A stretch of 61,115 nucleotides of DNA, filler included. It is 6 parts of 6 records of this genome, joined end to end, with 100 filler letters (N's around TTAATTAATTAA, not from the genome) between each part and the next. Parts side by side here need not be neighbours in the genome. Positions count along the whole stretch, not along the records: positions 1 to 20,910 come from SRR15195285_604; 5 more parts are not named here. One strand, 5' to 3'. This document shows, piece by piece, positions 1 to 57,010 of the stretch (position 1 is its first letter; each line of letters opens with the position of its first letter). A program made the position numbers and the translations under genes. Under the pieces are notes generated by a model. That model saw only the letters and a program-made list of their open reading frames with translations, ran no database searches and had not been told where the DNA came from.

Positions 1-93
1 GGGGGGGGGGGGGGGGGGGGGGGGGGTCGACGGACGCTCTACAGCGACACCTGTTCCCTGCGCAGTGCGCGCGTGGAAAGCACGTGGTGCTCG

Positions 94-3000
94 ATGTCCG
101 AGACGGGCGATGCGCAAGTGAACGCGCCGCGGGGAAACGAAGACGCAGTTGTGGAACTCGTAGCTAGCCTGCGTGCACGGGTGGCGTTTCTGGAGGGACA
201 GGTTCAGACAGGTGCAGCGCCCCCCGACAACCCGCCCGGCGAGTCGGATGCCATTGCTGTGGTGGGAAGTGGATGCCGATTTCCCGGCGCCTCTAGTCCC
301 GATGAGTTTTGGAAATTACTCTGTGAAGGCACAGACGCCATTTCGGAGATTCCGCCCGGTCGGTTTGACGTCGACGAGTATTTTGATACCGACGCTGCAA
401 CTCCAGGTACCATGAACGTGAGGGAAGGCGGATTCCTCTCGCAGCCGCTGGATCATTTCGACACAGCAGCGTTTAGTATAGCGCCGCGCGAAGCAAGGCA
501 TCTTGACCCCCAGCAACGGTAAGCCAGTGCCCCATTCTGACCACGATACCATCTTAACTCTCACGGCGACGTGCCGTTCGGCGCTGTTGCTCTCGTAGGT
601 TGCTTCTGGAGTGTGCGTGGGATGCTCTCGACGACGCCGGCGTTTCTTTTGGTGATCTGCGTGGATCATCAACAGGCGTATTTGTAGGATTGATGAACCA
701 TGATGACTTCATCCGGCAGCATGTGGTCGATGATCAAATTACACCATTCACTAACGCTGGCACTTGTATGTCTATTGCCGCGAATCGAGTCTCGTACCAT
801 TTTGATCTTCAGGGCGTGAGCCTTGCGACCGATACGGCTTGTTCGAGCTCTCTCGTGGCTATGCACCTCGCACGCACAGCGCTGCTCAGTCGAGAAGCTT
901 CTGCAGCGCTGTGTGGTGGCGTCAACGCGTTGCTACTGCCAGGGTTGTTTATTGCGCTCGCCAAACTGCGGATGCTCGCGGCAGACGGTCGATGCAAGAC
1001 ATTTGACGCGTCAGCAAACGGGTATGTGCGGAGTGAAGGCTGCGGTCTGGTAGTGTTGAAGCCACTTTCCGTCGCACGTCAGGCAACAGATCGATGTTAT
1101 GCAATTGTGCGTGGCAGTGCACTGAATTCTGATGGTCGATCGGCGATTCCAATCACGGCCCCGAGCATACAGAGCCAGAAGGCCAATTTGCTCAGCGCGT
1201 ACAAATGTGCCCAGATCGACCCCCAACTGGTGCAGTTTGTGGAAGCGCATGGTACAGGTACACAAAAGGGTGACTTTGCCGAGACAGCTGCGTTGGCTGA
1301 CGTGATGGGCGTTCGTAAACGGCCAGACAACCCGCTGTTCTTGGGGTCAGTGAAAACGAACATCGGCCACGCCGAGTCTGCAAGTGGCGTCGCCGGCTTC
1401 ATCAAAGCGATTCTTTGCCTGCACCACTCGCAGATTCCACAAAACCTTCATTTCCATGTGCCAAACCCAAACATAGATTTCACGGGACTCCGCGTTGTTG
1501 ATTGCCATGTGACCAATTGGCCGCGATGCAAGCACATTAGTCGTGAGTCGATGACCGTTGGAGTGAACTCCTTTGGCTTCGGCGGAACAAACGCACATGT
1601 TGTGGTGCAGGCAGCGCCGGCAGCAGCTCCAACTGCGGAAGACCGGGCTGCTCGGCAATCATCTACTTACTGCTTACCTTTGTCTGCCAGGACTGCAGCT
1701 AGTTTGATGAGATGTGCGGTTAACATGGCCAACTGCCTCGAGTCTCGAGATGTTGCTCCACTAGACGCGTGTTACACGGCCGCGCTGAGGAGGACGCAAC
1801 ACACTCATCGAATGGCAGTGATGGGTGAGACTCGGTTGGAACTGTGCACAGCGTTGAGAGATTACGTATCCAATCCAAATTCCCCGGGTTCAAGCCAGAG
1901 GAAGTGCGTTCGAGGTGTCGCAATCGAAACTACGCCACCACGACTGGCATTCGTGTTTAGTGGACAGGGCTCTCATTGGGCAGGTATGGGTGTCCGTCTT
2001 ATGGACACGTGTAAAGTATTTCAGTCAGAAATGTCTCGCGTTGACAGCTTGCTACAACCTCTGTGTGGATTTTCCATTGTTGACGAACTGCGACGTGGCA
2101 AAGCTGCTAGACTGACACAGCCCAACGTTGTACAACCGGCCATTTTTGCCATTCAGGTGGGTATCCTGGCTGTGTTAGACTCATGGGGCATCGTACCTGC
2201 TGCTGTGATCGGTCATAGTGTCGGTGAAGTTGCAGCCGCTTTCTGTGCTGGTGCTCTGACGTTGTCGCAGGCATGTAAACTGATTGCTGTGAGAAGCAGT
2301 CTCTGTCAGAGGGTTTGTAACTCTGGCGGAATGTTGGCAGCAAAGATTACTGCGGACCGTGCTGAGCAGGAATTGCGCAACGCAGATGCAGCAGGCGCTG
2401 AGATAGCTGCTTTCAACAGCCGAACTTCTGTTACGTACAGCGGCAGCACTGAGGAGATAGGATTGATGGAAACTGCCTTTGAGGCGCGATCCATTCCACA
2501 CAAACGCCTTGATGTTAGTGGGGCGTTTCACAGTCGATCTATGGATCCTATCAGATCGCAGTTGGAGGAACAGCTTCGTGATCTGGTCCCCACGTCTTGT
2601 CGTGTACCATTCCTTTCAACCGTAACAGTGGGCCCACTATCGGGAGAGAAGCTGAATGCAGCGTATTGGTGGAGTAACGTGCGACAGCCAGTTCACTTTC
2701 ACGATACAATCGCAGCAGCACGGAGCTCTGGGTGTGACGGGTTCTGTGAAATCGGGCCACACGGAATCTTGCAGAGATACTTGAAAGAAGAGCTTCCATC
2801 ACCGTGTTGGCACATGGCAACGCTCGTGAAACCAAACGACGACAGTGAAGTTGATCGAAATGACGGACTTGTGCACGTCTTGGCGCAGTTTTTTTGTCGT
2901 GGAGTCCATTGCCGTTGGCAAGGTATGTACCCACATGGGTCTGTCATCAGCTTGCCAACTTACCAGTTTGATCGGCAGCGATGCTATGTGGATTTGGTGC

Positions 3001-6000
3001 TGGCAGCTAGAGCAAAGAGATCAGTTCAGGAGCTCGATACCCAAGGGATGCTCAGCCTAGACGCGAGTGCTATGCATAAACAGACAGTTGTGGTGCAGGC
3101 TGCGCGAACAGGCTGGGTGCATGATCATATCTTGCAGTCCAAAATTGTCTTGCCTGGAACAGCGTACATTGAAATCGCTCTCGCGGCTGCAGACCAATTG
3201 TTTTCTAGCATTGCATCTGATCCACGTAAACCTGCTTTCTGCATAAGCAGTTTGAAATGGGTCTCGCCGCTTTTTCTTGATGCAACCGATGTAGCTTGCA
3301 TTGCTGTTGATGTGCAAAAATCATCATCAGGATCGCAATCGCTCAAGTGGAGTCTCGTAATGAGTGAGGCAAATGCTGCACAGCGTTCGGAGCCACGACA
3401 CCTGGCAAATGCAACACTGGACGCCGCACACTCTATTGAGTGGCCAGATCCTGTTCAAAACTTCCTTGAGCTGCAGAACAAGATGCCGGAGCAATCTGCA
3501 GCCACCGTGGCACTATCATCAGACGAAGTGTATCAACGTTTCGCAAAAATAGGCTTAGATTACACCGGCCTCTTTCGTGGAATCGACGAAATGTGGATCG
3601 ACGTTCAGTCGGGACAGTCGGTCGCCCGAATCTGCGCCGTTGGGTATAATAGCGACTCGTACACGTTTCACCCGGCACTGCTGGATTCAATCTTGCAGTC
3701 AATGTCCGGTGCGCTCGATCTTGGTGCTCCGTTGTTCCCTGTAGAAGTTGAGTCTATTAGACTACGGAGGGCGCTGGATGACCAGGAAATCTGGACGCAC
3801 ACTCAGCTGACACAGTCTCAAGACTCGTACGTAGTTGGGAATATCATTGCGTATGATAGTACCGGGCTTCCAGTGGTAGAGATTACTGGATTCAAGGTGC
3901 AGCTGCTGGACAGTCACGACACCCCCCCAACTGTGGCTTCGTTGATGTATTGCACACGTTGGTATTCGCAACCGTTGCCGGAACTCAGACTCACGGGAAA
4001 CGATCTCGGATGGATTATGTTTTTGCCACGCAATCCGCTCGTACCGCAGCTTGTCCAGGCCCTGCTGCATGAATTGCGCGTACGTGGACTGCTGTGTGGC
4101 ACAATCAGTTTGGGTGAGAAGTTTTCCCACAGCGGTGGCGAGTGGACTGTGAGACCTGATCATGGTGAAGACGTTGCGCAGGCCACATCTGAGTTGGAAG
4201 GTCAATTGCCATTCGTTGGCATCGTGAATTTGCTAGGATTAGAAACGCTTGTCGAACCGCTGCAAAATCCTGGCGCAATGGAACGCATCCAACGGGAGTT
4301 TTGCATGCCGCTGATCCATATGCACCAAAGCTATGCGGTACAATCGAAGAAGCGCGCAATTCTGACAGTAAAGTTTGGTGGACCTAATGCAAGTGAAGGT
4401 GTGAAGATCCTCTCGCTTGCGCAGTCGTTTGTAGATGGGATTGTGCGCACGAGCATGCTAGAGTCGACGAATGTGCTTTGTTACGCGGTTAGTCTTTCGA
4501 AGGGAAATGTGACGGAGGGAGACGCTCTTCTTCGAGAGCTGATGCGTTGTTCAAAGGAACTGCGCGGAGAACATTTGCATGAAAGCTCTTCGGACTTTGA
4601 GGTTGCGCTGGAAGACAACAAACGCATTGTGCCGCGAATAGAGCGTGAAAGTGAGCAGTCTGGTAAACTCCTGACACGTGGCCAACTTGTTGTACCAAAG
4701 CATACCTATGTGCTTGTCGGTGGTCTGGGCGGCCTGGGCATAATGGTTGCCGAATGGTTGCTGAAATTGGGCGCTGATTCTCTGGTGCTCACATCACGAC
4801 GTGGCGGTAGTACAAACGCTCTGGAGACGTTGGATAAGCTTCGCCAGTCATATCTTCACGCACAAATTCTGGTTATGTGCTCCGACGCATCGGACTATTC
4901 TGACCTTGTCAGTATGTTTGACGAGTGTAAAGAGTCGACACCTCCAATCAAGGGCGTCTTTCTCTGTACTATGCAACTTGCTGATGCACACATCGAGGCA
5001 CAGACGTTCAACACCGTTCGCTTGGCCATGGCTGCGAAGATGGATGCTGCTTGGAATTTGCATGCCGCTACCAAAGGTCTACAGCTCGACTTCTTCGTTC
5101 TGTTCTCTAGTGTTAGCGGTTTGATTGGCAATCGAGGTCAAGCAAATTACGCAGCCGGCAACACCTTTCTGGACGCACTGGCCCTTTTTCGCCACCGAGA
5201 AAATCTACCCGCGACCTCAATCAACTGGGGACCTGTCAGCGGCGCCGGGTACTTAGCCAAGGACCAGGATCGACTGCTTGCAAGCTTGAAGAAGCAGGGG
5301 ATGCGCCCTGTATCACTCGAAATGCTTCTGCAAGCTTTATCTCAAGTTGTAGACCAACAGCAGCTGGTGCAAGTGGCTTGCATTGACATAGATTGGTCGA
5401 CGTACTTGCGCAAGAACTACACTGGACGGACAAGAGCGATCATGCCCGCTCGCTTGGCGAGTATTGATCATCTCACAGCTGCGCTTACTCGCCCGCTTAT
5501 TCCGAAATCAAAACCAAACGACCTTGGGTCTGTTGAGGACCAACTCAGCACAATCGCGTCGCACATTTTAGGCATCGATTGCGAGTCGAGTGTGTCCGCT
5601 GACACCTCTCTAGTCAGCTATGGTCTAGATTCGTTGATGTCCAGTGAACTGCAACTCACAATTGAGTCCAACTGGAATGTCGTCATACCAATATCGAACA
5701 TTCTACAAGGCGCATCTATCAATGATCTCAGTAAGCTGATCAGTGATTGCAGCCATCCAAATTCCGTTGCGGGGCACTCAGCAAGCTTGGAGACAGATGA
5801 GGCACCTAGTACGGTGACGATAGACTCTATCGATGATAACTTCGGTCACGGATCGTTTACAATACCCAAGCCAGTGCAACCACCAAGACCAATCACGCGT
5901 GCTAGGAAGTTCGCGAACGTGATACCGTCTCCTAGTGAACTAACGCAACCCTTCGCCATGAATGATCTGCAGTTTGCGTATTATATCGGCCGGTCTGGGG

Positions 6001-9000
6001 CATTTGGCGCTGCTGTACCGTGCCATTTTTACTTTGAGTTCGACCGGGAGCACGACGACGAGTTAGACGTTGTGCAGCTTGAGAACGCATTTAACGTGCT
6101 GATTGCACGCCATGACGTATTGCGGTCGGTCGTTGTGGACGGCATGTTTGTCATCAAGAAGTCGGTTGCCGCCTATCGTTTTGATGTCGTACAGCTAGAA
6201 GAACACAATCATGAAATGTTGGAAAAATTGCGACGAAAGTACAGTCTCGAACAGTTTGATCCAGCACAATGGCCCTTGTTCAGCATTGCGATTACGAAAA
6301 CGCCGCGGTGCTCACGCATTCATGTGAACATTGACCACATTATCCTCGATATCAAGGCGACACTAACACTATTCGCAGAGTGGGCACATTGCTATTACTA
6401 TCCTAGCTCTAGTCTACCACACATTGGCTTCTCATATCGCGATTACAGCATCGCTACTGGGCAATACAAGTCCTCTGAGCATATCAATGGCGCCAGGGCA
6501 TACTGGATGGCTCGTCTAGATCAGCTTCCACCCGCTCCTCCGCTGCCGAAAAGCCCAACCAAGGCTTCGGCCGACGAACGGTCAGTTTTCACTCGACGAA
6601 CTGCACTTTTGAGTTCGGAGCAGTGGACCAAGCTCAAATCGTCTGCTGCACAATACAGTGCAACACCAGCTAGTGTCCTTTGTACCGCGTTTTGCCTTGT
6701 TCTGGCTCGCTGGTCTGCCACGTATAGTTTCACAATCAATGTCCCAGTCTTCAGCAAGTTGCCTGTGCACGATGACGTGGAGTCGGTACTGGGTGACTTC
6801 ACATCGTCAATTTTGTTGCAGTGTGATCTCGAGCTCGGTCATGAATTCAGGCAGTGCGTGCAAAAGGTACAGCACCAAATGTCTTGTGATTTGGATCATG
6901 TTGATTTCTCTGGTGTGGCCGTTTTGCGAGAGCTCTCACGCTTACCAATAGGAAGTGGGCAAGCTGTTAACACGTCAGACACAACTGCGTCCGGCAGCAT
7001 GGCAGGCATGCCTGTTGTTTTCACAAGCATCATCGATTCAAATGCAGGCGACTCTTATGGTTGGCTTGGTCGCAACGTGTACGGTATCAGCGAAACTCCT
7101 CAGGTGGAACTTGATGGGCATGTGTACACAATAGGCGATACATTGGCTGTTAACTTTGATTTTATTGCAGCAAGATACCCACCAGGAATGGTAGATGACA
7201 TGTTCGACTCATACATTCAGTTGCTGATGTCTTTGGCAACCGAAGAGTCGTCTTGGACTACCAAACAGCTGCAGATGCTTCCGCATGCTCAACAAGTAGA
7301 GCGTACAAATGCGAATATGATCCACACAAACGAACCACAGTACGAAATTGCACAGCCACAATCGTTAGTGTATGCAATTCTGCCTGCAATGGAAGCAAGT
7401 AAGTGGGGGTTGGCTGTGGTGTGTGGAACTGTGCAATTTACCTACGCTCAACTCCTCAGCACCGCCGTAGAATTAAGTTTAAGAGCGGAGCTTCGTGAGT
7501 TGCCACCACAGTCGACCGTGGCCATAGTAATGCACAAAGGGTGGGAGCAGATTGTCGCAGTGCTTGCAACCCTGCTGTTGGGTGCTGCGTACGTACCATT
7601 GGACGCAGCTTTGCCGCAGCGCAGGCTGTCTAAACTGCTTGCTCAGTGCAAAGCTAAAGCAGTTTTTGTACAGCAGACTGACGGCAGCAGCTGGTCCGTA
7701 CCGACTATCACTGTGGATACAGTTTGTGAACCAGCAACGTGGACCAGCGGTATGGACTGGATCAGTGTATGTCAAGAACAATTACCTCACTGGTCCAGCG
7801 TTCAGACGCACGATCTCGCATACGTGCTGTTTACCAGCGGGACGACTGGCGTTCCTAAAGGTGTGATGGTCGAACATGGGTCCGTTCTAAACACGGTGGG
7901 CTTCGTGAACACACGGTTCCAAGTCTCTTCTGCCGATGTATTTTTCGGGCTGAGCCAGCTTGGATTTGATCTATCGGTGTACGACATTTTCGGTAGTTGG
8001 GCTGCTGGTGCAACGCTAGTTCTGCCGCTCGAAAATCGGATGAAAGATCCAACGCACTGGATTTCACTTGTCGCTCAACACCGCGTTTCCATTTGGAATT
8101 CTGTGCCTGCTTTGATGGCATGGAAGCTTGACAGCATGGTGTGGCCGGACAAGAAATCAACGGCGTCCGGCGAATTATCCAGCCTAAGGCTGGTTTTACT
8201 ATCCGGTGATCGCATTCCAGCAGCTCTTCCTGTCCGGATTCGTACAGTCTTTAATGGTGCAACTGTGGTGAGCCTCGGAGGACCTACTGAGGATACGATC
8301 TGGGCAATCATATGCGAGGAGGTCGATCAGTTGTCCCCAGGTGGACTGATACCGTACGGTGTCCCTATCAGCGGTATGCACGCACATGTGATAGACACGA
8401 TGGGAAACGACTGCCCAGTGTGGACAGTAGGTGAAATATGTTTCACTGGCGTCGGGGTTGGTCGTGGATACTTCGAAGACCCGGAGCTGACAGCTGCGTC
8501 ATTTTCTGTGCATCCAGCGACGGGCGACAGAATGCACCGAACCGGAGACATTGGCCGATATTTACCTGGAGGCAAAATAGAGATCATAGGTCGAAACGAC
8601 TTTCAGGTAACTTTTCTTTCGTTCATTTTTCTTTCGTTAACTTTCCCTTCACTCATTTTCCTGTCACGTTCAGGTCAAGGTACGGGGTTTTCGGATCGAG
8701 CTAGAAGAGATCGAGACGGTAGCCCAAAGTGTGGATGGAATTCAGGACGTGGCCGTTGTGCCTATACGAGACGACAACACTAACCAGAACTACACTGGAC
8801 TCGTAATGTGTTACACAACGACCCCCGAACCTCCGAAGAAAACCACGATTGTCCGACAATCTGAATCGGAAGCCGTTGCCTTCAAATGTGCCAGACTAGG
8901 AGAGCGGCAGGGGTTGGGGTCTGCCATTGCGTTGACACGCGTTGCATCACTAGAGGCACAGAAGCTTGCCCAGGATCGTCGCACGTGGCGCATGTTTGCA

Positions 9001-12000
9001 TCCTCAGCACTACCGCGGGAGAATTTTGAATCTGACATTGTAGAATCACTTCGTGAGACCTGCGCCAGCAGTTCTGTGGAGATGAAATACTTGCTGTACG
9101 TCCGAGAGGGAGGAATATCAGGTGTCCCATCAGGCTTTTACCAGATCGGCAAGCAGTTTTCACTCAAAGCCGAGAGTACATCGGACACCTTTGAACAGCT
9201 ACCTGCAGACACGGTATTTGGGGAAAACGAGTCGATTTTCCGCACGTCAAGCGGAGCAATTTTCATGTTGCAGTCTGGCACTACATGTACGCCTGCGGCA
9301 CTAATCGAAGCCGGAAGAATTGGTCATCGGCTGATGCAAAGTGTGGCTTCAGAAGATGCTGCAACAGGATTCTGTCCGATTGGCGCGATCAATTCATCAG
9401 CTTTGTATGGGTGGTTGGCATCTGGTAACAAGTCCAGCACGGTTGTCCACACTATGTGCTTTGGGCCTGTCTTAGGCTCTGTTGGTAATTCTACGCCCAC
9501 GCACATGAAGCAGACGCGCGAACAGCAGTTGCGTGCTCGTCTTACGTCCGAGCTTCCGCAGTACATGGTTCCACGTTCATATTTCGAAGTAGATGCGATG
9601 CCACTTTCAAAGAACGGCAAAGTTGACCGCCGTGCACTCGAAATCTTGTACCACTCAGACAATAGAGAGCGACTTGCACATAATTCAGTCCAAGCTTCCT
9701 GTGGTGACTCATCTAGTGGTGATGTGAATGTATCGCCGGCAGAAACTGAGCTACTGGTCATCTGGAAGAATCGACTTAAAGGCGCAACGAACATCAACAC
9801 TAAAGATGACTTTCTGGCGTTGGGTGGAGACTCTCTTGTTGCTTTGCAAATGATCGTAGATGCTCGTGCTAAAGGATTGCAGTTCTCTGTAACAGATCTT
9901 TTTGCAGCACGTACCATTCAAAATATGGCACGGCTGGCAGCAGGGCAGCAGTATAATGCTGAAAGTGCTCAAAATTCCCGTGACAAGGCAATGGAAACAA
10001 AGGACATGTCGAGATTGCCACAGCTACTCGAGGATCCAGCGAAACGCCACGAGCCGTTTGGTTTGACGCCAGTTCAGCAGGCCTATTGGGTGGGCCGGCA
10101 TGAAGAGATGAACCTCGGCAATACATCAACGCATGGATATCTAGAGTGGAAAGTGACTAGTTTCAAGCTCGAGCGACTCCAGTCTGCTCTGGTGTCCCTC
10201 GTTGAAAGACACGAGATGCTGAGAGCCATCGTACGGCAAGATGGGTTGCAGCAAGTGTTGCCTGTGAGTCACAAGACCTACCCTGCTGTAAATGTGATCG
10301 ACTTGACTAAGCATCCTGAACAAGAAGCGGAGATGCGTCGAGTCCAGATACGCAACCGCCTGTCTCACGAGATCTTCGACCCGTCAAAATGGCCGCTGTT
10401 CTCGGTTTCTGCGATATCTGTCAGTGAGGTTGACTGTTATGTCGGCTTCAGCTACGATATGCTCGTGTTTGACGTGCGCAGCATCTTTATGTTTGTTGAT
10501 CAGCTGTTTTTGATCTACCATGGGCGAGAGCACGTATACACCAAGCCGAAAATCAGTTTTCGAGACTACACAGAAGCGCTTGAGCGCTGGAAATATGAGT
10601 CTAGCGACTATCACAACAGCATACAGTTCTGGCGGCAAACATTTGTGGAGCACCGTCCACGTGGTCCAGACTTACCGCTGGCATCAAGACCCGAAGACAT
10701 CGAGCAACCTCGGTTTCTACGCCAAGAATTGCGGTTCTCTGCAGCCGTGTGGTCAAGCTTTAGCGAAAGCGCCACCGAAAACGGACTGACCCCGTCGGCC
10801 GTTTTACTTTCTCTGTTCGGACTGGTCTTGCGACAATGGTGCAGTGACGAAAATCGTCCCTTCTGCATCAATGTGCCTGTGTCATCGAGGCTACCCCTTC
10901 ACGTGGACGTCGACCGCCTCATTGGAGACTTTACCACGACAATCTTCATCACTTTCCAAGGCAGCAGCACTTGCTTTCTTGAACAAGCTCGGGCTACTGC
11001 TGAGCAACTAATGGAGCGCATCGAGCATCGCCACGTATCTGGCGTAGAAGTTCTCCGGAGTCTGTCAACAGGCGATCCCTCTATCATGTCTGAGATGGCG
11101 GTACCTGTTGTTTTTACCTCTGCGTTGGACATAAGTGTTGAGGCTCATTCTGATATAGAATTTTCCTACGGTGTCTCACAGACGTCACAAGTCTGGCTTG
11201 ACTGCCAGGTATACACAGAGAATGATACCCTCATCATGAACTGGGATTATGTATCCGGCCTGTTTGCACCAGGACTAGTCGACACGATGGCTACATTGTT
11301 CTACGCAAGCGTAGGCAGATTGTCGGCCAGCTCATCATGGGACACGTTGAAGATTACAAGTGGTGTTGACATGCCAGATGGTGGTGACGACCTAGCGGCT
11401 GCAAACAATCATCAGCTTCTGCACTCAGCGTTTGTACAACACGCCTGTTCTCATGGCGAGCGTCCAGCTGTAGTTTCTGCAGAAACCGGAAGGATATTTT
11501 CTTACCGCCAGCTGCTTGATCAGGCAGTAGTGGTCCATAACTGGGTAGCACAGCACGTCTCCCACAAGGCGGAGCAAACCCGGCTTGTTGCTGTGGTAAC
11601 AAACAAAGGCTGGGAAGAGGTCGTTGCCGTTCTTGGTGTGCTATGTACCGGAGCTGCGTACATACCGATTTCGGCATCGCTTCCTCCAAATCGAATCAGG
11701 CAGCTTCTCGATTTGTGTGAAGCATCGTGTGTTTTAACGCACTCCGCAATTAAATCCTATCTGGGATTCTTGGATGCAATTGCTCCGACTCTGTGTGTTG
11801 ACGCCATCGATTACCCTGGCACCTCGACAAAAGCACATGACCAAATCATCGTATCTGGCGACGGAGGTTCTTTGGCTTACGTCATATTTACCAGTGGGTC
11901 CACCGGTGTGCCGAAAGGAGTAATGATTCAGCACTGTGCTGCACTAAATACAATTGACGAAATCAACCGCCGATTTGAGGTAGGTTCGGCTGACAGAGTT

Positions 12001-15000
12001 CTCGGGGTATCGTCGCTCAGCTTTGATTTGTCGGTTTGGGATATATTTGGAATTCTCAGTGTGGGTGGATGCCTCGTCATCCCATCAGCTGACTCTGTCA
12101 GAGATCCAGCACAATGGGTTGAGTGCATTCGAGCTCATGGCGTAACGATTTGGAACTCCGTACCACAGCTATTGAGCATGCTCGTTGAGCACGTTGGTGA
12201 CGCACGCGACGTAGCAGTCAACGGGCTATCATCGATGCGGCTGGCTCTTCTTAGCGGTGACTGGATCCCTGTTGGACTACCAACTGCATTCCGTGCAGTG
12301 ACATCTGATGCAACCAGTGTGATTTCTCTCGGTGGAGCCACTGAGGCCTCGATATGGTCGGTGATATTTCCGATTGATGAGGTGAAGCCAGAATGGGTTA
12401 GTATCCCTTATGGTAAAGCTCTGGCAAACCAGCGCATCTACTGCCTGAATGCAAATTTCGAGGTAACTTTGCCTTGGGTTCGTGGAGAACTATACCTCGC
12501 TGGGGTTGGCTTAGCCGTTGGCTACTGGAAAGCACCCGACCTAACAGCCACGCAATTCATTCTGCATCCAGAAACGGGCGAACGCCTCTACAGAACAGGC
12601 GACATGGGACGGCTCACAGACACAGGCGATATTGAATTTCTCGGGCGCGTTGACTCGCAAGTCAAGCTGTCGGGATATCGCGTCGAGCTTGGCGAGGTAG
12701 AAGTTGTTCTACAGAGCCACCCTCAGGTACAACATGCAGTTCCATTGGTGGTGGACATATCTTCGTCTCGGGCCTTGGTGGCCGCGGTTGTGCCTACTGG
12801 TTCTGTGGATGACACTTTTAACACACAGTTGTGCAACTTCGTCAAATCAAGGCTCCCTGATTACATGGTTCCTCGTGCGATCGTTACGATGGACTCTCTG
12901 CCACTCACCAAGAATGGCAAGGTCGATGGCAAGCAGCTTCACGTGCGGATGCACCATGCTATCGAAATGTCACCGGAGCAAGACTTACATGTTTCTCCAG
13001 GGCATGATGTGAAGCATCTCGCTGTATCTTTGGCCTTGGATCCTATTGTATCGAACATTGTGTCGATCTGGCAAGACGTCTTGAAAATTCCAGTGGAACC
13101 AAATTCCGATTTTTTTGTAGATCTTGAAGGGGCGTCTGCTGTGGCTATACAGCTCATCAACACTGTGAATGCTTGTCTGAACACGAAGATGGCTGTCGCC
13201 AAACTCTTCAGCCACCCAACTCCATTGCTCCAGGCCGAGCTCGTCAGGCAGGGAGGAGGTTGCGAATCAATCACACCCATCGTCGACCTTGCACCAAGTT
13301 CAACGGCTTCGCACCGTGTGTACTGTATACATCCTGCTGGGGGCAGTAGCATTTGCTATGCACGAGCTGCTCGAGCACTAGAAAATGATCTGCATCTGTT
13401 TGGTGTCGACGATCTGCATTCGGTGGCACAGCTTTCACAATCTGTTGACGGTTCAGCCGAAGATGTTGCATCACAGGAGGATGACATAGATTTGCATGCA
13501 GATGTGGAGAAAGAATTGTCCATCAAAGAACTGGCAAGACGCTACGCGCAGTTCATTGTCGAGCATGCCAAAGGGGAAGAGTTTGCTCTGGTTGGGTTCA
13601 GTTTCGGTGGGATCATTGCATGGGAGGTGGCATCACATTTAAATGAAGCTAGCAAGGTGGTCGGTATCAGCCTCATCGACACAGATGCTCAGGGCGAAAC
13701 GACAATGACCGACGAGGCAATTTTGGGCAATATCGTAGAGCATTATCGGCGCTCAACAGGGCAGAACGTTGAAACGCTCAATATGCCTTCAAATGCCACT
13801 CAGAATCAGGATGAGTTGTGCCAATTAGTTGCTGATCATATGGAAGAAGCAGGACTGTATCCACAAGGGATTGGGTTTAGCGCGCTGAAGCGGTTCTTAG
13901 CTCTATTTCGTCGGCACATCAGGATGATTGACGCCTACACATTCCCGAGCACGCTAGGAAGACGAGTTCCGGCAATATTTGTGTCGGGTTTAGATTCTAG
14001 CCGACAACAACGGGAGTTCTGGAATGGCCTCTGTACACATTCAGGAGGTTTACTGCACGCTGCTGTACCTGGTCATCACGATGAAATGCTGTCTGAGCTC
14101 CACTCAAGCACAACTGTTGGGTCTTGCGCACAATTCTTCCAGGGCAACCCTCTGCAGTTGACACAGTTGCAAGATGGCAAGAAAGCCCATCTCAAACAAG
14201 TGGTTGTAGAATGTCTCCAAGTTGATATCGATCCTCAACAGCTCTCCGAGGGTACAGACCTGTGGACACTCGGTGCCAACTCAGTATTCTACGTGAAGCT
14301 GCAGCGTCGTCTCAAGAAGGATCTAGGAGTAGATGTACGATTACCTGCTCTACTTGCGGCCCCACGACTGAGTGACTTGAGTGCAATTGTCATGCCACAT
14401 GTTGACACCCACGAAAGCAAACCTGGGGAAGCTGCTCAAAACCCCTCGTGCACGCCATTGCGTGAAGACTATTCGAATCCAGCTGAAGCAGCAGCAGGTC
14501 ACAGCTCCGTTGCAATTATTGGGATGTCTTGCCGGCTCCCAGGAGAAGCGAATTCACCCGAAGAATTCTGGAATAATTTAATCAATTCTGTCGATTGCAT
14601 CAGTAGATTCTCATCAAACAAGTCTGCAGATTCGAATTGGATAGGTGCCAGTGGCTTAGTTCACGGAACCTGGATGGACTGCTTTGACTGTGAACTATTC
14701 CAGATGACACGAAAGGAATCGTCAATATTGGATCCACAACACAGGCTGTTTCTAGAGCTGGTTTGGGAAGCATTAGAACAGTCTGGGATCCGTGAGCGTG
14801 AGAAAGCTGTTGGAGTTTGGTCTAGTTTTGCTCCTAACACCTACCTACAGGCGTTGTTGAAGCAACACGCGGTAGCTGAGCCAACCGGCACAGCAGATAT
14901 GCTGCAGTTACTTCTCGGTAATGAGCGCGACTACGCATCTGCACGACTTTCGTACCTATTGGATTTACGTGGGCCTAGCATGAACGTCCAGACTGCGTGT

Positions 15001-18000
15001 TCTAGCAGCTTGGTTGCGATGCATCTGGCGCGCGAAAGCCTCAACCGTGGAGATTGTGCTGCTGCGGTTGTTGGTGCCGTATCTCTTGCCTTTCCGATGC
15101 GACGAGGCTACACATGGGAACAGGGGGGGATTTTTTCACAGCGTGGTCGATGTGCCGCGTTCGATGTCTCTGCTGATGGTACGGTCCCAGGATTTGGTGG
15201 TGCAAGCGTGATAATGCAACCAATCGGAACTATAGATGCGCAATCCAACCACTATGCTGTGCGTGCTGTGCTGCGTGGCGGTGCAGTGAATCACGATGGT
15301 CGCCGGAAACCTGGCTTCACGGCACCCTCAATGCAGGCTCAATTTGAAGTGCTGCGCGCGGCGTTCATCTCTGCCGAACGAAGCCCGTCCACTCTTGGCA
15401 TGATTGAAGCTCATGGAACCGGTACTGTACTCGGGGACCCGATTGAAGGCACAGCACTTTTGCAGTTGCTTGCATCCGCAACGGATGCTCGTGCGTCGAA
15501 TATGCCTGTAGCCCTGGGCTCTGTAAAAAGCAACATCGGGCATCTCGATGCTGCTGCAGGGCTTGCTGGAGTTGTCAAGGTCGTGTTGGCATTGGAACAT
15601 TCCAAAATACCGCCCACACTTCATGTCTCGCAACCAAATCCTGCGATTCCATGGGGCTCACACCTGGCACCTGTGACGCAGGCCCAAGAATGGCCTGGCC
15701 TCCAGTCAACTGCTGGCGTAAGTTCGTTTGGCATGAGCGGCACCAATGCACATATCGTACTACAGCAGCCGCAGAAGAGTGTCTTGGATGATGCGACACA
15801 AGCTCCAGAGGCTGTTGGCCAGCCTTCCCTACTGACGTTGTCTGCAGCATCAGAAAGGTCGCTTCAAAGTTCCGTCGAGAACTTGCGCAGCTGGGCCAAA
15901 GATCACCCAGATTGCACACTTGCAAACGTAGCGTTGACATTGCACCGTCGCCATGAACACCGGCTCGGTTACCAGGCAACTGCCGTGGCACACTCTAACG
16001 TTCGCGCGATATCCAGCACCGACTTCATCGTGCACCAGTCGGGTGATGTAGACGTGGTGTTTCTGATTCCCGGCCAAGGGGTTCAGTCGCTGGAGCATGT
16101 TGCATCTATGTACTCGTACCACGCAGGCTTTCGCTTGCAAGTCCAAGAATGCTGTGATCTACTGTGTGCACAGGACGAGTGGCAAGCTGTTGGCACTTCT
16201 GTACTACGCGCTATTGCGAGTGGGCGCAGTATTAGTCTCACTGGCCAGGCTGAGCAGCAGGCCTGCGTCTTTGTGGTCAACTACGCAATGTCACAGGTCT
16301 GGATACAGACTGGAGTGACTCCGAGGTGCGTTTGCGGGCACTCTCTGGGTGACCTTGTTGCGTGCTGTATATCCGGCGCTGTAGAACTTAAGGATATGCT
16401 TCGACTAGTTGCCAAACGCGGGCAGCTAGTCGACTCGCTCGCAAGGACTGATGGGGGCATGTTAGCGGTGCGATGTACTGAGGACGTCTTGTGCGCTGAG
16501 CTTACAGAAGCCCGCTGCAGCGGCAAACTTGTGCTGGCAGCAGTCAACCAACAGAACCAGCTCGTTGTGGCAGGGCTGGGTGAGGACGTTGCTCGATTTG
16601 AGTCTCATATGAAAAACCGTGGGATTGCAGCACACCGACTTCCAGTGCAGCATGCGTTTCACACCCTGGCAATGGAGGCAGCATCAAGAGAGCTCAAGCA
16701 GCTTTTCGCGAACATCAACGAACAACCACAGGAGGCTAAGAGCGATGGTGTTGTGCACATATCGACGGTTACAGGTCAGCGACTCCAGGAACAACCGACA
16801 GCGGAATATTTCGCGCAGCAGCTCGTGCTCCCAGTCCAGTTCTGTGCTGCTGTTGAATCGGCAATATGCCACGGACCAAGCTCTGTGGAAGGTGCAGGTG
16901 CCACCACACACCGAGTACTGCTAGAAGTAGGGCCGTCAACTACGTTGACATCGATTGTGGCGGGTTTGGGGACAGGCCTATCATCATTCCCTCACCACAG
17001 CCGTTCGCAAATGGATGGATATTCTCACTGGCTACACACTTGTGGCATTTTGTGGAGCCTTGGTGTGCCGGTGCAGCTTCCTGGACTTACATCCCCTGAT
17101 GAGGCTACTAAATATTTGTCAGGATTGCCGCCGTATGTGTTCGACCGCGAGCAGCTCACAGCTCCGAGCCAGCGAGCAATTGGCGAAAGTGGTTCGAACC
17201 CCAAGAAAGTTGACTCAACTGAAAACACCAAGGAGATGCTGAACAAACTTTTTCAGGACACGTTGGCGTGCAGTAGTCCTGTCGATGTCAACAGCAACTT
17301 TTTTACCCTTCGAGGCTCATCATTGGATGTCGTGCAACTTCTCAACGGAGTTAGGAGCACGCTCGGGGTGACTATCACCATGTCTCAGTTTTTGCAACAG
17401 CCGACAGTGCAGGGGCTTTACGATCTTGTGTCGAGTGGTGACCACACGCAGTCCAGCGACGATTCAAAACCCGTCAGTGGTACGGACACTACCCACAAGT
17501 TTGAATCATGGCACCCACTCAGCTTCAGTCAGGAGGCGATATATGCGATCGAACACATATATCCACGAAATGATGGTGTGTACAACCTTCCGTCTGCCTT
17601 CATTTTTCCAGTAGGGACGCTGACACAGGCACAGCTTTCTGACCATCTGGCTCGTCTGGTCGCTAAACACGATTCCCTGCGCGCTACATTTCGTTCCAAC
17701 AGTTCTGCAACGTCGACTAAGTACACACCATGTATGTCAGTCGCTGACACGTATGTAGTTGAAGTTGAACAAATCTCTATTCATCGAAACAGTCCTGGCG
17801 ACGAGAGTGACGACCAAGAAGCATTAGACAGGGAACTGCGGCGCTTCACCAACAAGCCCTTCGACCTGCGAGCAGGCCCTCTAATCCGAGCAGGTGTTGT
17901 ATCGCAAGTGGTCCTATCGAAAGTGGGTGCGGAAGTGACAGTGGCAGTTGTAGTGCTTCATCACCTTGTCTGTGATGGATTATCAGCTGGTGTTCTGCTG

Positions 18001-19002
18001 GGCAATCTAGCGCTAGACACGATTGATGCTGGCAAGGCTTTAGATCTTCCCGAACAGAGCTATGTGGAATTTGTGAAATGGGAGCGTCGATGGATTGAGA
18101 CGCGTGCAGCTGAGATCGCCTTGGAATACTGGCGGGGTGAACTAGCGAGGCTGCTATACAAGGAAAATGCGATGGTTTTATCTTTGCAGTCAACGATACC
18201 AGCTGACCCAGACCGTGCCAACAGAGCTGATGCATCCCAGCGCAGACTAGCCATCGGCAGAGAACGGAGCTTCGGTGGTGGTTCTGTGGCGATCACATTG
18301 AGCAAGGACACGGTGCAAAACCTCAGAAAAGTTGCAAGTCAGTTCGGTGTTACGTTGACAGTAGTTTTGATGGGGCTATACGCTTGCTCTTTGTGGAAAT
18401 GTGCAGCTCGTAGCAACAATCCAAAACTGATCCCCATAGGCGTGCCCGTGGCGAATCGACCCCATGGATTCCAGCGGTTGGTGGGTTGCTGCATGAACAT
18501 GGTGGTTCTCTGTTGTGATGTGAAGCCCGATGAGCTGCTGACCAAGTTCCTAATTAACATTCAGCAAAAGGTAGCCGCTGCGGTGGATCATTCCTATCCA
18601 TTCACCGAGTTGGTACGAAAACTCGCGCCACCCCGGGCAAGGGGTTACAATCCACTATATCAAGCGGTGTTCAACGTTCGACCCGCCGAACAGCGTCACC
18701 CAGCCACTACTAGCCCGCTGTTGGGTCCGCAGGTGCCTTACAGATTCGATTCTGATCGATCACAGAATGACATTGGCCTCCACTTAGTGGAACCAGCACA
18801 GCAAGAGTCTTCCACGGGGGCTGACGATGACTGCTGTAGCGGATATCTCGAGTACAATGACCAGATTCTCGATCGGTCAGAAGCGACTGATCTCGCCCGA
18901 TCGTTCATTCGCTTAACAAATTACGTAGCTACTAGAAGTGCTGCCGACGAGGGATCGATGGCCACAATATTGTCGACGCTTGATGGTGCTTTCGGATCCT
19001 GA
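94..19002 (+). CDS. Hybrid type I PKS-NRPS megasynthetase, 3 exons (94-518, 599-8606, 8674-19002), ~6,253 aa: KS-AT-DH-KR-ACP-Cy-A[Ox]-PCP-Cy-A-PCP-TE-ACP-KS-AT-ACP-C
   Basis: Removing GT-AG introns 519-598 and 8607-8673 restores the conserved motifs DPQQR|LLLE (KS) and GRNDFQ|VKVRGFRIEL (A8) in frame. Motifs seen: KS1 DTACSSS/HGTGT/GHAE; AT1 GHSVG/GAFHS; DH HDHILQSKIVLP and HPALLD; KR GGLGGLG/NYAAGN; ACP GLDSL; Cy1 DHIILD; A1 TSGTTGVPKG; PCP GGDSL; Cy2 DMLVFD; A2 TSGSTGVPKG; TE HPAGG/GFSFG/GHHDEM; KS2 QTACSSS/HGTGT/GHLD; AT2 GHSLG/HAFH; C HHLVCDG. Confidence 0.93.
519..598 (+). other. Spliceosomal intron 1 of the PKS-NRPS (80 bp, phase 2)
   Basis: GTAAGC donor and TCGTAG acceptor; splicing gives CG+G = Arg in DPQQRLLLE. 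Confidence 0.93.
8607..8673 (+). other. Spliceosomal intron 2 of the PKS-NRPS (67 bp, phase 0)
   Basis: GTAACT donor, T-rich body, TTCAG acceptor; joins ORF 600.. to the frame of ORF 8731.. and restores the A8 motif. Confidence 0.93.
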
Positions 19003-19188
19003 CGCAAGTAGTTGAGTCATGACTGTGCATTTGGTCTAAACTTGTGCAAAATGCAGCCAGTGCCTCAGCATCTCTAGAGTTGGCCTTTGGTACGAATGTA
19101 TCGCATGCCTGTCAAGTGCCGTCTATATTCCCAGCACTTGACACAGACATACACCCACGCGCAAGCGGGGACAACGTTTCTGACTGCC

Positions 19189-20819
19189 TCACGCTGAACC
19201 TCCCACTAGGCAATGCAGCAGACGATGTGTGTCCGAAAGGCGGAAGCTATTCCGCAGCTCTGGACTAACACATGAATTCACAGCTTCGTCTGGCAACGAG
19301 CACTCTTGTAAAGATATACGCTGCTTTGCTGCAGTATCCATCAGAAGTTCGGTGATGTAACCTGCTTCGAGCATCATGAAGCTGAAGCTGTGCTCGCCGT
19401 ACAGAGGCTCAATAGCCGCGAGATCACCGATCAGAAAGAGATAGAATGCGCAAGCGTCATCACCTGTCGCACCAGCACACCCATCACAAGGTGCGCCCTG
19501 CATTTCCTCTTGCAACAGGTGCAGGGAGTGCGTTGATGGTTTGTAGCTGCGCATTCATATCCACAGCTGTCAGTGCCAATCACAGCGCACACAGAAGGGT
19601 ACAGACACACGTGGGTGACACTCACTAGTAGCATCCGCCGCTGAGACCTTCGATCGCGCCTTGGCGAATAGAAAAGTATACCTGTACGGGGTACAGACTG
19701 CCTGCGGATGCATAGCGATACTTCGGGAGCACATTGCCTTCGATATCGATACACATCAAGGCGTCACAGATGCCTGTAATCTGCTGGGTGGCAATAATGC
19801 TCGATGTTGCCCCTGGGTTGCCTTCGCGTGTGTCACGCACATTCGTCGTCGCACGGCTGGAGTTGCTCACAGCTTCCCATTCATGGCCCGTAGTGTCGAG
19901 GTACTGCTGCTTCAACGTTTGAAGATCACGAACAGACTCCGCGACAGTCTTTACGTCAGCTTTCCTGTCGCAGAAACCAGCAGGATCAGGAGAAGCACGA
20001 CAACCAGGTCACCAAATAATGCCCACAAGATCGGACGCACTCGAGTTTCTTGCTGCGAATGTCTGCCATCTTTGCAGCGATCGCTGCTGCAAGTTTGGTG
20101 GCATGGAGAATATCATCCTCGGATTCGTGGCTCTGCGTCTTGTGTGTTGCGGTGTACAGCGTGTAGCCGACAGCCCAACATGTACTTAGCTGCAGCAACG
20201 TGTCCACTGATGCTTCGGTGACCAGTCGCTGAATGTAGCGCTGCAATTCGTTGCCACGCGCAGCGATTCGCCCATCGGCGCCAGGCAACCATGGAAGAAT
20301 GATACCTTTGCCGGGAAATGGCAAATGCGGAGAATAGCTGGTCAACGATTGGCTCGCAAGAAGCTGGTCGTGTCGCCTGCGCAACTCGCTGTAACGCTCA
20401 GAGAACTGAACTGCGCCCGTAGATCTGCTTGCCACAGTAAACTTGTACTTGATGTGAGAATCTGCCTCAACGCCGGCTATCGTGTGCCCAGTGTACGTCA
20501 CGCTGAAACCTTCGTTGCTTGCAGCACCGTATGGACATTTGCACGGAACAGAGCTTGCTTTCGCTTCGCAGAGTTCTGAGCCAGGGACGCTCGCGACGAG
20601 ACCTGGTAGATGACGTTGCACCCGTTTGATGTGCCCTGGTAGAAATCCGAACTCTTTTGCCAGCTCCTCGGGCGTCAGGTCACAGAAGAGAACAAAATCG
20701 TACCCCTGACCGACAAGAGCCTTGGCATACATTTCCACCTGCGCAGCCGGCTTGATCCCCAAATGCTCCGCCAATAGGGTCTTGAAAAATTCGACGGTGC
20801 CGTCTTCATGCTCGAACAT
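19189..20819 (-). CDS. SAM-like + PX domain + SagB/ThcOx-type (NRPS Ox-like, nitroreductase fold) oxidase fusion; exons 20819-20041, 19964-19626, 19546-19189; ~491 aa
   Basis: Introns 20040-19965 (GTGCGT..GACAG) and 19625-19547 (GTGAGT..CTGAC..GCGCAG) join three ORFs in frame. Ox motifs: KYRYASAGSLYPVQVY, GGCYYYKPSTHSL (formed across the splice) and IEPLYG..MLEAGY. PX motifs: ERYSELRRRHDQL, LPFPGK, RGNELQRYIQRL. The N-terminal YAKALVGQGYD..DLTPEELAKEFG..GHIKR segment is SAM-like. The start lies near the contig end, so it is uncertain. Confidence 0.8.
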
Positions 20820-20910: not shown

Positions 20911-21010
20911 NNNNNNNNNNNNNNNNNNNNNNNNNNNNNNNNNNNNNNNNNNNNTTAATTAATTAANNNNNNNNNNNNNNNNNNNNNNNNNNNNNNNNNN
21001 NNNNNNNNNN
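20911..21010. other. Artificial contig linker (N44-TTAATTAATTAA-N44)
   Basis: Identical 100-bp spacer with six-frame stops; occurs five times in the window. Confidence 0.97.
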
Positions 21011-26457: not shown

Positions 26458-26557
26458 NNNNNNNNNNNNNNNNNNNNNNNNNNNNNNNNNNNNNNNNNNN
26501 NTTAATTAATTAANNNNNNNNNNNNNNNNNNNNNNNNNNNNNNNNNNNNNNNNNNNN
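26458..26557. other. Artificial contig linker
   Basis: N44-TTAATTAATTAA-N44. Confidence 0.97.
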
Positions 26558-33892: not shown

Positions 33893-33992
33893 NNNNNNNN
33901 NNNNNNNNNNNNNNNNNNNNNNNNNNNNNNNNNNNNTTAATTAATTAANNNNNNNNNNNNNNNNNNNNNNNNNNNNNNNNNNNNNNNNNNNN
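33893..33992. other. Artificial contig linker
   Basis: N44-TTAATTAATTAA-N44. Confidence 0.97.
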
Positions 33993-43480: not shown

Positions 43481-43580
43481 NNNNNNNNNNNNNNNNNNNN
43501 NNNNNNNNNNNNNNNNNNNNNNNNTTAATTAATTAANNNNNNNNNNNNNNNNNNNNNNNNNNNNNNNNNNNNNNNNNNNN
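43481..43580. other. Artificial contig linker
   Basis: N44-TTAATTAATTAA-N44. Confidence 0.97.
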
Positions 43581-56910: not shown

Positions 56911-57010
56911 NNNNNNNNNNNNNNNNNNNNNNNNNNNNNNNNNNNNNNNNNNNNTTAATTAATTAANNNNNNNNNNNNNNNNNNNNNNNNNNNNNNNNNN
57001 NNNNNNNNNN
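56911..57010. other. Artificial contig linker
   Basis: N44-TTAATTAATTAA-N44. Confidence 0.97.

Follow-up and report, generated by a model that had tools for sequence, protein, structure and literature searches.

A spliced gene for a bacterial-type PKS-NRPS assembly line, a probable maker of thiazole/thiazoline rings, on a contig of a probable aquatic protist

The window analysed here, a stretch of 61,115 bases, consists of six contigs joined by stop-codon spacers of the form N44-TTAATTAATTAA-N44, in which TTAATTAATTAA is a 12-mer between paired 44-N runs. The first contig (SRR15195285_604, positions 1-20910; contig 1) carries alone the locus of interest: a very large plus-strand gene for a hybrid of a polyketide synthase (PKS) and a nonribosomal peptide synthetase (NRPS) and, converging on it from the minus strand, a gene whose product ends in a thiazoline oxidase (Ox) domain of the NRPS kind. 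Because the window is a set of spacer-joined contigs with no physical linkage past 20910, the genes of contigs 2-6 cannot be used as neighbours of this locus. The coordinates of all features are collected in Table 1.

To define the synthetase gene, three forward open reading frames (ORFs; 1-522, 600-8783 and 8731-19002) were joined by removing two short GT..AG stretches, which gives a spliced frame of 18,762 nt, or 6,253 codons plus stop, with no internal stop. Removal of intron 1 rebuilds the ketosynthase (KS) sequence DPQQR/LLLE, and removal of intron 2 rebuilds the adenylation motif A8, GRNDFQ/VKVRGFRIE. A search for sequencing runs containing the locus returned 17 runs of seven studies, all aquatic or seawater metagenomes, four of them metatranscriptomes of a single study. 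We compared the Logan contigs of one DNA run (X1) and three metatranscriptome runs (X2-X4) with positions 200-20199. The joint 517 to 598 (80 nt skipped, GT..AG) occurs in one contig each of X2 and X4, and the joint 8601 to 8669 (67 nt skipped, GT..AG; cut shifted by 5 to 8606/8674) in X2 and X3. A third joint, 19963 to 20040 (76 nt skipped, CT..AC, that is, GT..AG on the minus strand), falls on an intron of the oxidase gene and was seen in one contig of X3. None of the three joints is present in the contigs of DNA run X1. The RNA contigs are spread along the entire synthetase gene; such contigs cannot show expression levels, and individual runs leave some sections uncovered. Because three short GT..AG stretches are precisely lost in RNA, each loss restoring a frame and a motif, we regard them as spliceosomal introns; at 67-80 nt they lie far below the size of group I or group II introns. 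The synthetase is a eukaryotic nuclear-type gene, transcribed and spliced in environmental samples. An earlier note on this DNA, made from the letters alone, had proposed exactly such a spliced gene and had named RNA reads across the junctions as the check, and both synthetase junctions were recovered from RNA and not from X1.

The two ends of contig 1 limit what can be said of the surroundings. Contig 1 begins 93 nt before the synthetase ATG (position 94) and ends 91 nt past that of the oxidase gene, and both reading frames are open to the contig ends, so that the two-gene cluster envisaged in the earlier note cannot be claimed. Since the synthetase frame is open from base 1 to the ATG, this ATG is a presumed start only. 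The run of 27 G at the contig start is probably an artefact of sequencing or assembly that kept the contig from reaching further than 93 nt ahead of it. At about 51-65, a pyrimidine-rich sequence ending in CCCTGCGCAG is a candidate 3′ splice site of a further upstream exon. Rfam gave no match anywhere in the window, and no sigma-70 or terminator-like sites were detected in 18900-19300.

Pfam and NCBIfam scans, together with motifs read on the sequence, revealed the following domain order for the 6,253-aa protein: KS, acyltransferase (AT), dehydratase (DH), ketoreductase (KR) and acyl carrier protein (ACP); heterocyclization (Cy), adenylation (A, with an embedded, putative diverged Ox) and peptidyl carrier protein (PCP); a second Cy-A-PCP; an internal thioesterase (TE); an extra carrier; KS-AT-ACP; and a terminal condensation (C) domain. 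Pfam matches lie far above their cut-offs and all catalytic motifs read are present, as in modular type I PKS/NRPS hybrids. The GHSVG and GAFHS motifs of AT1 presumably mark it as malonyl-like. About 250 aa ahead of the catalytic part of KR have no Pfam match and are taken as its structural subdomain. The carrier motifs of ACP1 and PCP1 are canonical. The terminal C domain (17932-18999) has its closest solved relative in PDB 8Z0Q, 'Special condensation domain in NRPS' (E 1.7e-29). Pairwise identity is 31% for Cy1/Cy2, 43% for A1/A2 and 36% for KS1/KS2, and contig 1 holds no long DNA repeats, so the modules are not recent duplicates. The first three modules and the full length of the gene had been recognised in the earlier note, including the reducing PKS module followed by two Cy-A modules of the cysteine type; the embedded Ox, the internal TE, the fourth module and the terminal C domain had escaped it.

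The assignment of the two heterocyclization modules rests on motif, kinship and specificity code. Within the synthetase, the HHxxxDG motif of condensation domains is confined to the terminal C domain, and Cy1 and Cy2 carry DxxxxD motifs in its place. Their best matches are bacterial Cy domains (37-39% identity), and a quick tree with the gene's own C domain as outgroup placed both inside 62 bacterial Cy domains, 0 of which have HHxxxDG. By motif and by kinship, both belong to the Cy family. The ten code positions of the A domains were read through the motif register of GrsA, and nine of them were checked on an alignment with 400 A cores taken from relatives. This gave DLYNLSLIW(K) for A1 and DLWNLSLIW(K) for A2, the codes given in the earlier note. 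Among the 62 cores that follow a Cy domain, 28 read DLYNLSLIW, 16 DLYNMSLIW, 5 DLFNLSLIW, 3 DLYSMSLIW, 2 DLWNLSLIW and 2 DLYSMGLIH, with 6 others; the commonest codes of the remaining 338 cores differ (DVWHFSLVD in 30, DFWNIGMVH in 17). We take the DLYNLSLIWK-type signature to denote cysteine under the Stachelhaus code, and by this code A1 and A2 would be cysteine-type A domains of Cy modules.

A1 is interrupted after motif A8 by an insert of about 240 aa, ahead of its LPQYMVP and NGKVD motifs. A search of 1.84 billion representatives with this insert returned 16 proteins at E <= 1e-3, the window's own ORF included. Seven of the matches were scanned with Pfam. Nitroreductase PF00881 is present in the five larger ones, which are NRPS proteins: it coincides with the matched stretch in P0122, P0123, P0130 and P0131, and in P0128 its best stretch (1118-1280) comes C-terminal of the matched part (884-1034). 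The other two, fragments of 178 aa, gave no Pfam match. In P0123 and P0128 the matched region comes after a truncated AMP-binding_C domain. P0121, an environmental protein of 178 aa, is 64% identical to window positions 9268-9800 in the search and 57% in the alignment, and spans the end of the embedded Ox, A9/A10 and the linker to the PCP. Since it runs on into the same A9/A10 and linker, a diverged relative of the synthetase exists elsewhere. In its account of IndC, PMC8795117 places the Ox domain between A8 and A9, 'as in EpoB', the position that the insert occupies in A1 of the window. We read the insert as a probable Ox domain of the NRPS kind that has diverged.

The convergent gene was modelled as three exons encoding 491 aa. 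The RNA joint fixes exon A and the start of exon B at 19964. Removal of the predicted second intron, whose joint was seen in none of the RNA contigs, joins ...GGCY to YYKPSTHSL and so produces the G.YYY.P motif of Ox domains (GGCYYYKP) without a gap. By BLAST, residues 260-491 align with the Ox regions of three bacterial NRPSs, P0008, P0035 and P0003 (identity 34-38%, E 1e-25 to 1e-16). The SagB-type family TIGR03605 lies below threshold in each Ox exon, in colinear order, and BmdC is the only PDB family matched colinearly by both exons, weakly (E 0.006-0.09 per exon). The motifs RRSxR and GxCPIG are not kept. On these matches the gene ends in an NRPS-type thiazoline oxidase domain, which agrees with the oxidase announced in the earlier note; its division into three exons and an N-terminal part of 260 aa unrelated to oxidases had not been noticed there. 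Within exon A, a PX-like stretch (RYSEL...PFPGK...ELQRYIQRL) scores 20.9 bits against PF00787, just under the cut-off of 21.6 (E 5.4e-4), and thus stays outside the family. The first 70 aa look SAM-like by eye, and Pfam gives no support for this. Such PX-like and SAM-like stretches would mean that a tailoring enzyme of bacterial type has been fused to domains of eukaryote type.

Comparison with embedded Ox regions of bacteria revealed two kinds. In the first, a complete single lobe carries RRSYR, KYxYPSAGxLYPVQ and GLCPIG (P0266, P0122, P0131); in the second, two lobes stand in tandem, one with the PSAG-type motif only and the other with the R-rich and GxCxIG motifs only (P0008 twice, P0268, and P0035 in part). 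The embedded Ox of the window resembles the R-rich/GxCxIG lobe, with RRTWRMF and GFCPIG kept and ETCASSSVEM at the PSAG place. The convergent Ox resembles the PSAG-type lobe, with KYRYASAGSLYPVQ kept and VRDTREG and ISLQECS at the places of the other motifs. The motifs kept by the two parts are complementary. When the embedded Ox and the two Ox exons were modelled together as separate chains, the complex scored 0.85 (best of three controls 0.00), which was rated as support for binding. This mark is attained by 51 of 78 solved complexes and by 2 of the 108 mismatched pairs; at least 73% of contacts were common to the runs, and the partner's predicted local distance difference test value (pLDDT) was at least 67. 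The modelled interface packs helix on helix, residues 52-70 of exon C with residues 161-178 of the embedded domain, two 'EAG' helices whose pairing we take to be the usual nitroreductase dimer contact. Two points temper this result: the trans Ox was given as two exon chains, unlike the cases on which the tool was calibrated, and dimers of the nitroreductase type are already among solved structures. For these reasons the pass shows only that both Ox parts can be modelled as a dimer; it may reflect likeness and not a preference for the partner over self, and each half might form a homodimer instead. We consider that the oxidase is probably a heterodimer of the degenerate A1-embedded domain and the protein of the convergent gene. 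On this view, the two lobes that stand in tandem in the Ox regions of bacterial relatives would here be split between two proteins.

With exon 3 as query against proteins of 1,893-6,024 aa, only the window's own ORF was close, and the next matches had 26-40% identity over at most 46% of the query. The organism names among the matches listed were all bacterial, both here and for exon 2, which was compared only with proteins of 4,672-5,000 aa. The best identities per domain are 37-50%, with no relative above about 50% in any domain. A scan of metagenome contigs for close relatives returned one locus (L001, 39% identity), and two scans of viral contigs (IMG/VR), which detect close relatives only, returned none. 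For the first ~4,200 aa, or two-thirds, of the synthetase there are colinear counterparts in two uncharacterised bacterial proteins: P0266 (4,718 aa, from a metagenome) and P0002 (4,506 aa, Desulforamulus ruminis by source). Both share the order KS-AT-DH-KR-ACP-Cy-A-PCP-Cy-A with an insert before A9/A10 of the first A domain, at domain identities of 31-50%, and P0266 covers 100% of exon 2 at 32%. At the place of the insert P0266 holds an Ox with a complete single lobe, in contrast to the diverged one of the window, and P0002 an insert to which a precomputed Pfam list assigns methyltransferase families. Unlike the window synthetase, neither continues into an internal TE followed by carrier-KS-AT-ACP-C.

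We then examined the variants between the window and the four runs. Of 51 variant places found, 40 are listed, 19 synonymous and 21 not, a synonymous share (19/40) above the 24% expected by chance (binomial p = 0.001). With variants leaning synonymous and the frame intact, the synthetase appears to be selectively maintained. Its origin would most simply be the old transfer of a bacterial line with several modules, after which introns were gained and at least two reading frames fused.

The domain order suggests a course of synthesis. KS1 would take an acyl starter from an outside partner and extend it with malonate, and the action of KR and DH, with no enoylreductase, would leave an enoyl thioester. 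Cy1 would couple this chain to the cysteine loaded by A1 and close a thiazoline, which oxidation would turn into a thiazole; Cy2 would attach another cysteine, in the form of a thiazoline or, should oxidation occur here too, of a thiazole. The chain would then most likely pass to KS2-AT2-ACP3 for one more malonate, left as a beta-keto unit, and the terminal C domain would release it onto an amine or alcohol. The internal TE would edit or transfer the chain or, on a second route, release the bis-heterocycle as an acid at that point. Because TE, extra carrier, KS-AT-ACP and terminal C follow module 3, the enoyl-thiazol(in)e-thiazoline that the earlier note offered as the product, with a possible role as metallophore or toxin, would be an intermediate at most, or what only one of the two routes yields.

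Altogether, we consider it highly probable that contig 1 carries a bacterial-type thiazole/thiazoline PKS-NRPS line resident in a protist nucleus, the mechanism just outlined and an old transfer included. Several observations weigh against this. RNA libraries may hold DNA, and the splice evidence consists of assembled contigs, not raw reads. One RNA contig of X4 is without 4 bases at 14363, in the linker after the TE, which shifts the frame; X1 and X3 cover this place without the gap, and the loss in X4 may be a variant or an assembly error. The Cy domains have very long branches in the quick tree (1.84 and 2.19; median 0.47), which leaves their placement unsure. In the three carriers that follow module 2, the attachment Ser is preceded by A, N or S (GAS, ANS, SSL) in place of the usual D or H, and the A1 insert itself lies below the Pfam threshold and matches no PDB sequence. 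The starter unit and partner enzymes are not on contig 1, and no product of the assembly line is known. The GC content at third codon positions is 0.51 in the synthetase and 0.55-0.69 in ORFs of the other five contigs, whose linkage to contig 1 is not established.

The end of the line admits a different reading, in which the TE is its true terminus: the first 4,640 aa would yield and hydrolyse an enoyl-thiazole-thiazoline carboxylic acid, and the C-terminal carrier-KS-AT-ACP-C would be a second, fused unit working on another substrate or on the released acid. The TE has an intact Ser, Asp and His set (closest PDB match the TE of Pks13, E 4e-6), and among the 21 of 374 relatives with a TE match it ends the protein in 20 (at most 181 aa after it) and is followed by 595 aa in one, with a further module in none, so that an intact TE in mid-line is unusual. 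Because the TE otherwise ends proteins, the C-terminal third could be a separate unit; KS2-AT2-ACP3 moreover resembles the N-terminal start of the separate bacterial proteins P0016, P0021 and P0104, as a fusion of two genes would predict. Against this, KS2 is closer to KSs that follow an A domain (median 42.2% versus about 39%, with KS1 reversed), that is, to those accepting chains from NRPS modules; the extra carrier has no domain to load it; and a single uninterrupted frame carries synonymous-leaning variants along its whole length. We find termination at the TE somewhat unlikely, though a serious contender. Much less credible is that the Cy-A(Cys) modules leave no thiazol(in)e rings and perform other chemistry such as sulfur transfer, or that the gene is a decaying relic. 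Cy branches of about four times the median, the odd carrier motifs and the degenerate embedded Ox would suit such a view, and there is a precedent in the Cy domain of TlnC (thiolactomycin), which according to the preprint bioRxiv 10.1101/2024.12.18.629141 sulfurates a polyketide instead of making a ring. Tandem Cy-A-PCP modules accompanied by two oxidase parts nevertheless fit ring formation and oxidation, and the intact frame, expression, synonymous-leaning variants and kept DxxxxD motifs speak against decay, which together make this alternative improbable.

Other explanations concern the source of the contig. It might come from a giant virus that infects protists and relies on the spliceosome of its host, in keeping with large, gene-dense and intron-poor DNA of mixed ancestry in aquatic metagenomes; some nuclear-replicating giant viruses do have spliceosomal introns. 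The IMG/VR scans returned no relative within their reach, the ORFs scanned include no viral hallmark gene, and sister contigs carry ordinary cellular genes, among them a class III alcohol dehydrogenase (ADH), so we rate this origin as very improbable. The faintest chance of all goes to a bacterial contig, from a free-living cell, symbiont or contaminant, in which the apparent introns arose by chance or assembly error. The named relatives are indeed all bacterial, the introns few, and the contig short and unlinked to others. This explanation is already contradicted by three GT..AG stretches that are present in DNA and missing from RNA contigs of three runs, each removal restoring motif and frame at a length too short for group I or II introns, and by the lack of any relative above about 50% identity in any domain. 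We therefore retain the nuclear, bacterial-type line as the preferred reading.

The host is an uncultured aquatic single-celled eukaryote. On contig 6, the class III ADH has its best named matches (62-67% identity) among diatoms, oomycetes, a pelagophyte, Bigelowiella, Sphaeroforma and Porospora, a range that singles out no lineage, and is up to 93% identical to unnamed environmental proteins. Other contigs carry long uninterrupted ORFs with recognizable domains (Table 1), four more ORFs (307-1,039 aa) gave no Pfam match, and four ORFs had no match in PHROGs. Relative synonymous codon usage of the synthetase correlates with that of ORFs on the other contigs at r 0.32-0.77.

Table 1. Positions of the genes, domains and other features, counted along the whole window.
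Feature	Positions	Strand	Remarks
G homopolymer, 27 G	1-27		contig 1 start; likely sequencing/assembly artefact at contig end
PKS-NRPS exon 1	94..518	+	N-terminal 50 aa and start of KS1; ATG at 94 a presumed start
Intron 1	519..598	+	80 nt, GTAAG..TAG, phase 2; removed in RNA contigs of X2, X4
PKS-NRPS exon 2	599..8606	+	
Intron 2	8607..8673	+	67 nt, GTAAC..CAG, phase 0, in A8 motif; removed in RNA contigs of X2, X3
PKS-NRPS exon 3	8674..19002	+	includes stop codon
KS1	247..1457	+	spans intron 1; DTACSSS, HGTGT, NIGHAE
AT1	1950..2801	+	GHSVG, GAFHS
DH	3081..3917	+	
KR	3951..5240	+	Pfam KR catalytic part (GGLGGLG, YAAGN)
ACP1	5541..5741	+	GLDSL
Cy1	6054..7292	+	DHIILD (aa 2054-2059) replaces HHxxxDG
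A1 to motif A8	7413..8757	+	spans intron 2; code DLYNLSLIW
Putative diverged embedded Ox (nitroreductase-type)	8806..9522	+	between A8 and A9 of A1; RRTWRMF, GFCPIG kept, PSAG-type motif lost
A1 motifs A9/A10	9517..9621	+	LPQYMVP, NGKVD
PCP1	9751..9936	+	LGGDSL
Cy2	10063..11301	+	DMLVFD (aa 3406-3411)
A2	11437..12921	+	code DLWNLSLIWK
PCP2	13057..13227	+	Ser kept; GAS instead of GDS/GHS
Internal thioesterase-fold domain	13273..14160	+	GFSFGG, IDTDA, PGHHD
Extra carrier-like domain	14221..14421	+	LGANSV; Pfam match weak
KS2	14506..15627	+	QTACSSS, HGTGT, NIGHLD
AT2	16057..16926	+	GHSLG, HAFHT
ACP3	17248..17430	+	GSSL
Terminal condensation domain	17515..18966	+	HHLVCDG
Convergent gene exon C	19189..19546	-	second half of Ox domain and stop
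Predicted second intron, convergent gene	19547..19625	-	79 nt, GTGAGT..GCAG; joint not seen in RNA contigs
Convergent gene exon B	19626..19964	-	first half of Ox domain (KYRYASAGSLYPVQ)
Convergent gene intron	19965..20040	-	76 nt, GT..AG; removed in one RNA contig of X3
Convergent gene exon A	20041..20819	-	N-terminal 260 aa; frame open to contig end
Joining spacers	20911-21010, 26458-26557, 33893-33992, 43481-43580, 56911-57010		five pairs of 44-N runs
GH123 and F5/8 type C, 1,409 aa	21330-25559	-	other contig, long uninterrupted ORF
cNMP-binding and EF-hands, 963 aa	29975-32866	-	other contig, long uninterrupted ORF
C-type lectin and laminin-G-like domains, 2,944 aa	34194-43028	+	other contig, long uninterrupted ORF
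EF-hands and ion-transport domain, 849 aa	50159-52708	+	other contig, long uninterrupted ORF
Class III ADH	59328-60701	-	contig 6; ~45-aa N-terminal extension

Siderophores, toxins and drugs are built on thiazole and thiazoline rings that NRPSs with Cy domains form, a chemistry regarded as bacterial and so far reported almost exclusively from bacteria. Among the known systems, the EpoB-type Cy-A-Ox-PCP module of epothilone and the bithiazole lines of myxothiazol, bleomycin and colibactin join Cy-A(Cys) to PKS modules. In the bithiazole lines tandem cysteine modules lead to bis-heterocycles, as they would here, a likeness at the level of architecture; the module orders of the myxothiazol, bleomycin, colibactin and yersiniabactin clusters differ from that of the synthetase. 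The window departs from EpoB and the bithiazole lines in its eukaryotic host, its introns, its single 6,253-aa polypeptide, the internal TE, the terminal C domain and an oxidase apparently divided between an embedded and a separate part. For the separate part the nearest parallel is BmdC of the bacillamide pathway (PDB 7LY4-7LY7), described in PMC8795117 as a stand-alone Ox of the nitroreductase type, whose substrate is the PCP-bound thiazoline and which is docked on the A domain during the reaction. The convergent Ox is likewise separately encoded; BmdC has an N-terminal RRE-like domain, in contrast to the 260 aa with a PX-like stretch and the loss of RRSxR and GxCPIG in the window protein, which, unlike BmdC, adjoins a synthetase already holding an embedded Ox-like domain.

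Bacterial-type megasynthases in protist nuclei have precedents in the PKS and PKS-NRPS genes of algae and protists, treated in the reviews PMC7073580 and PMC6722697 and in the preprint 10.64898/2026.04.17.719054. According to PMC7073580, NRPSs described from algae are very few; the review mentions a GNAT-KS-C-A gene of Chrysochromulina parva, on a small contig and with an A domain predicted for cysteine, and contains no occurrence of 'heterocycl', 'cyclization' or 'thiazol'. In 10.64898/2026.04.17.719054, a 2026 preprint on single-cell genomes of marine protists, type I PKS genes are widespread and the term 'NRPS' is never used. We found no literature report of Cy domains or thiazoline oxidases in protists or algae; the supplements of PMC7073580 and of the single-cell-genome preprint, which lie outside this scope, may list relevant genes. 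PMC10212144, a large survey, calls fungi 'the only known eukaryotic producers' of NRPS products. The enzymology of the locus is of a known bacterial kind; novel are its occurrence in a eukaryotic host, its introns and fusions, and a split of the oxidase that is probable. A bolder proposal, which we advance tentatively and think unlikely to hold as a whole, is that a Cy-type NRPS line native to a eukaryote is seen here for the first time, with an Ox split into an A-embedded degenerate half and a half fused to a PX-like, lipid-binding part, such that thiazole formation would need the two to meet, possibly on an endomembrane, and with a fused module past the TE that would give a thiazole-thiazoline polyketide unlike the bacterial products.

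If borne out, the presence of such a line in an uncultured aquatic protist, transcribed, spliced and kept by selection, would extend the producers of heterocyclic NRPS products by another group, and expression of the synthetase gene would offer a concrete way to a new S2N2 metabolite. With its introns, its gene fusions and a tailoring enzyme that bears a eukaryote-type domain, the locus would further represent a natural case of a bacterial multi-gene pathway adapted to the nucleus. The split oxidase, if true, would inform on the origin and decay of embedded tailoring domains.

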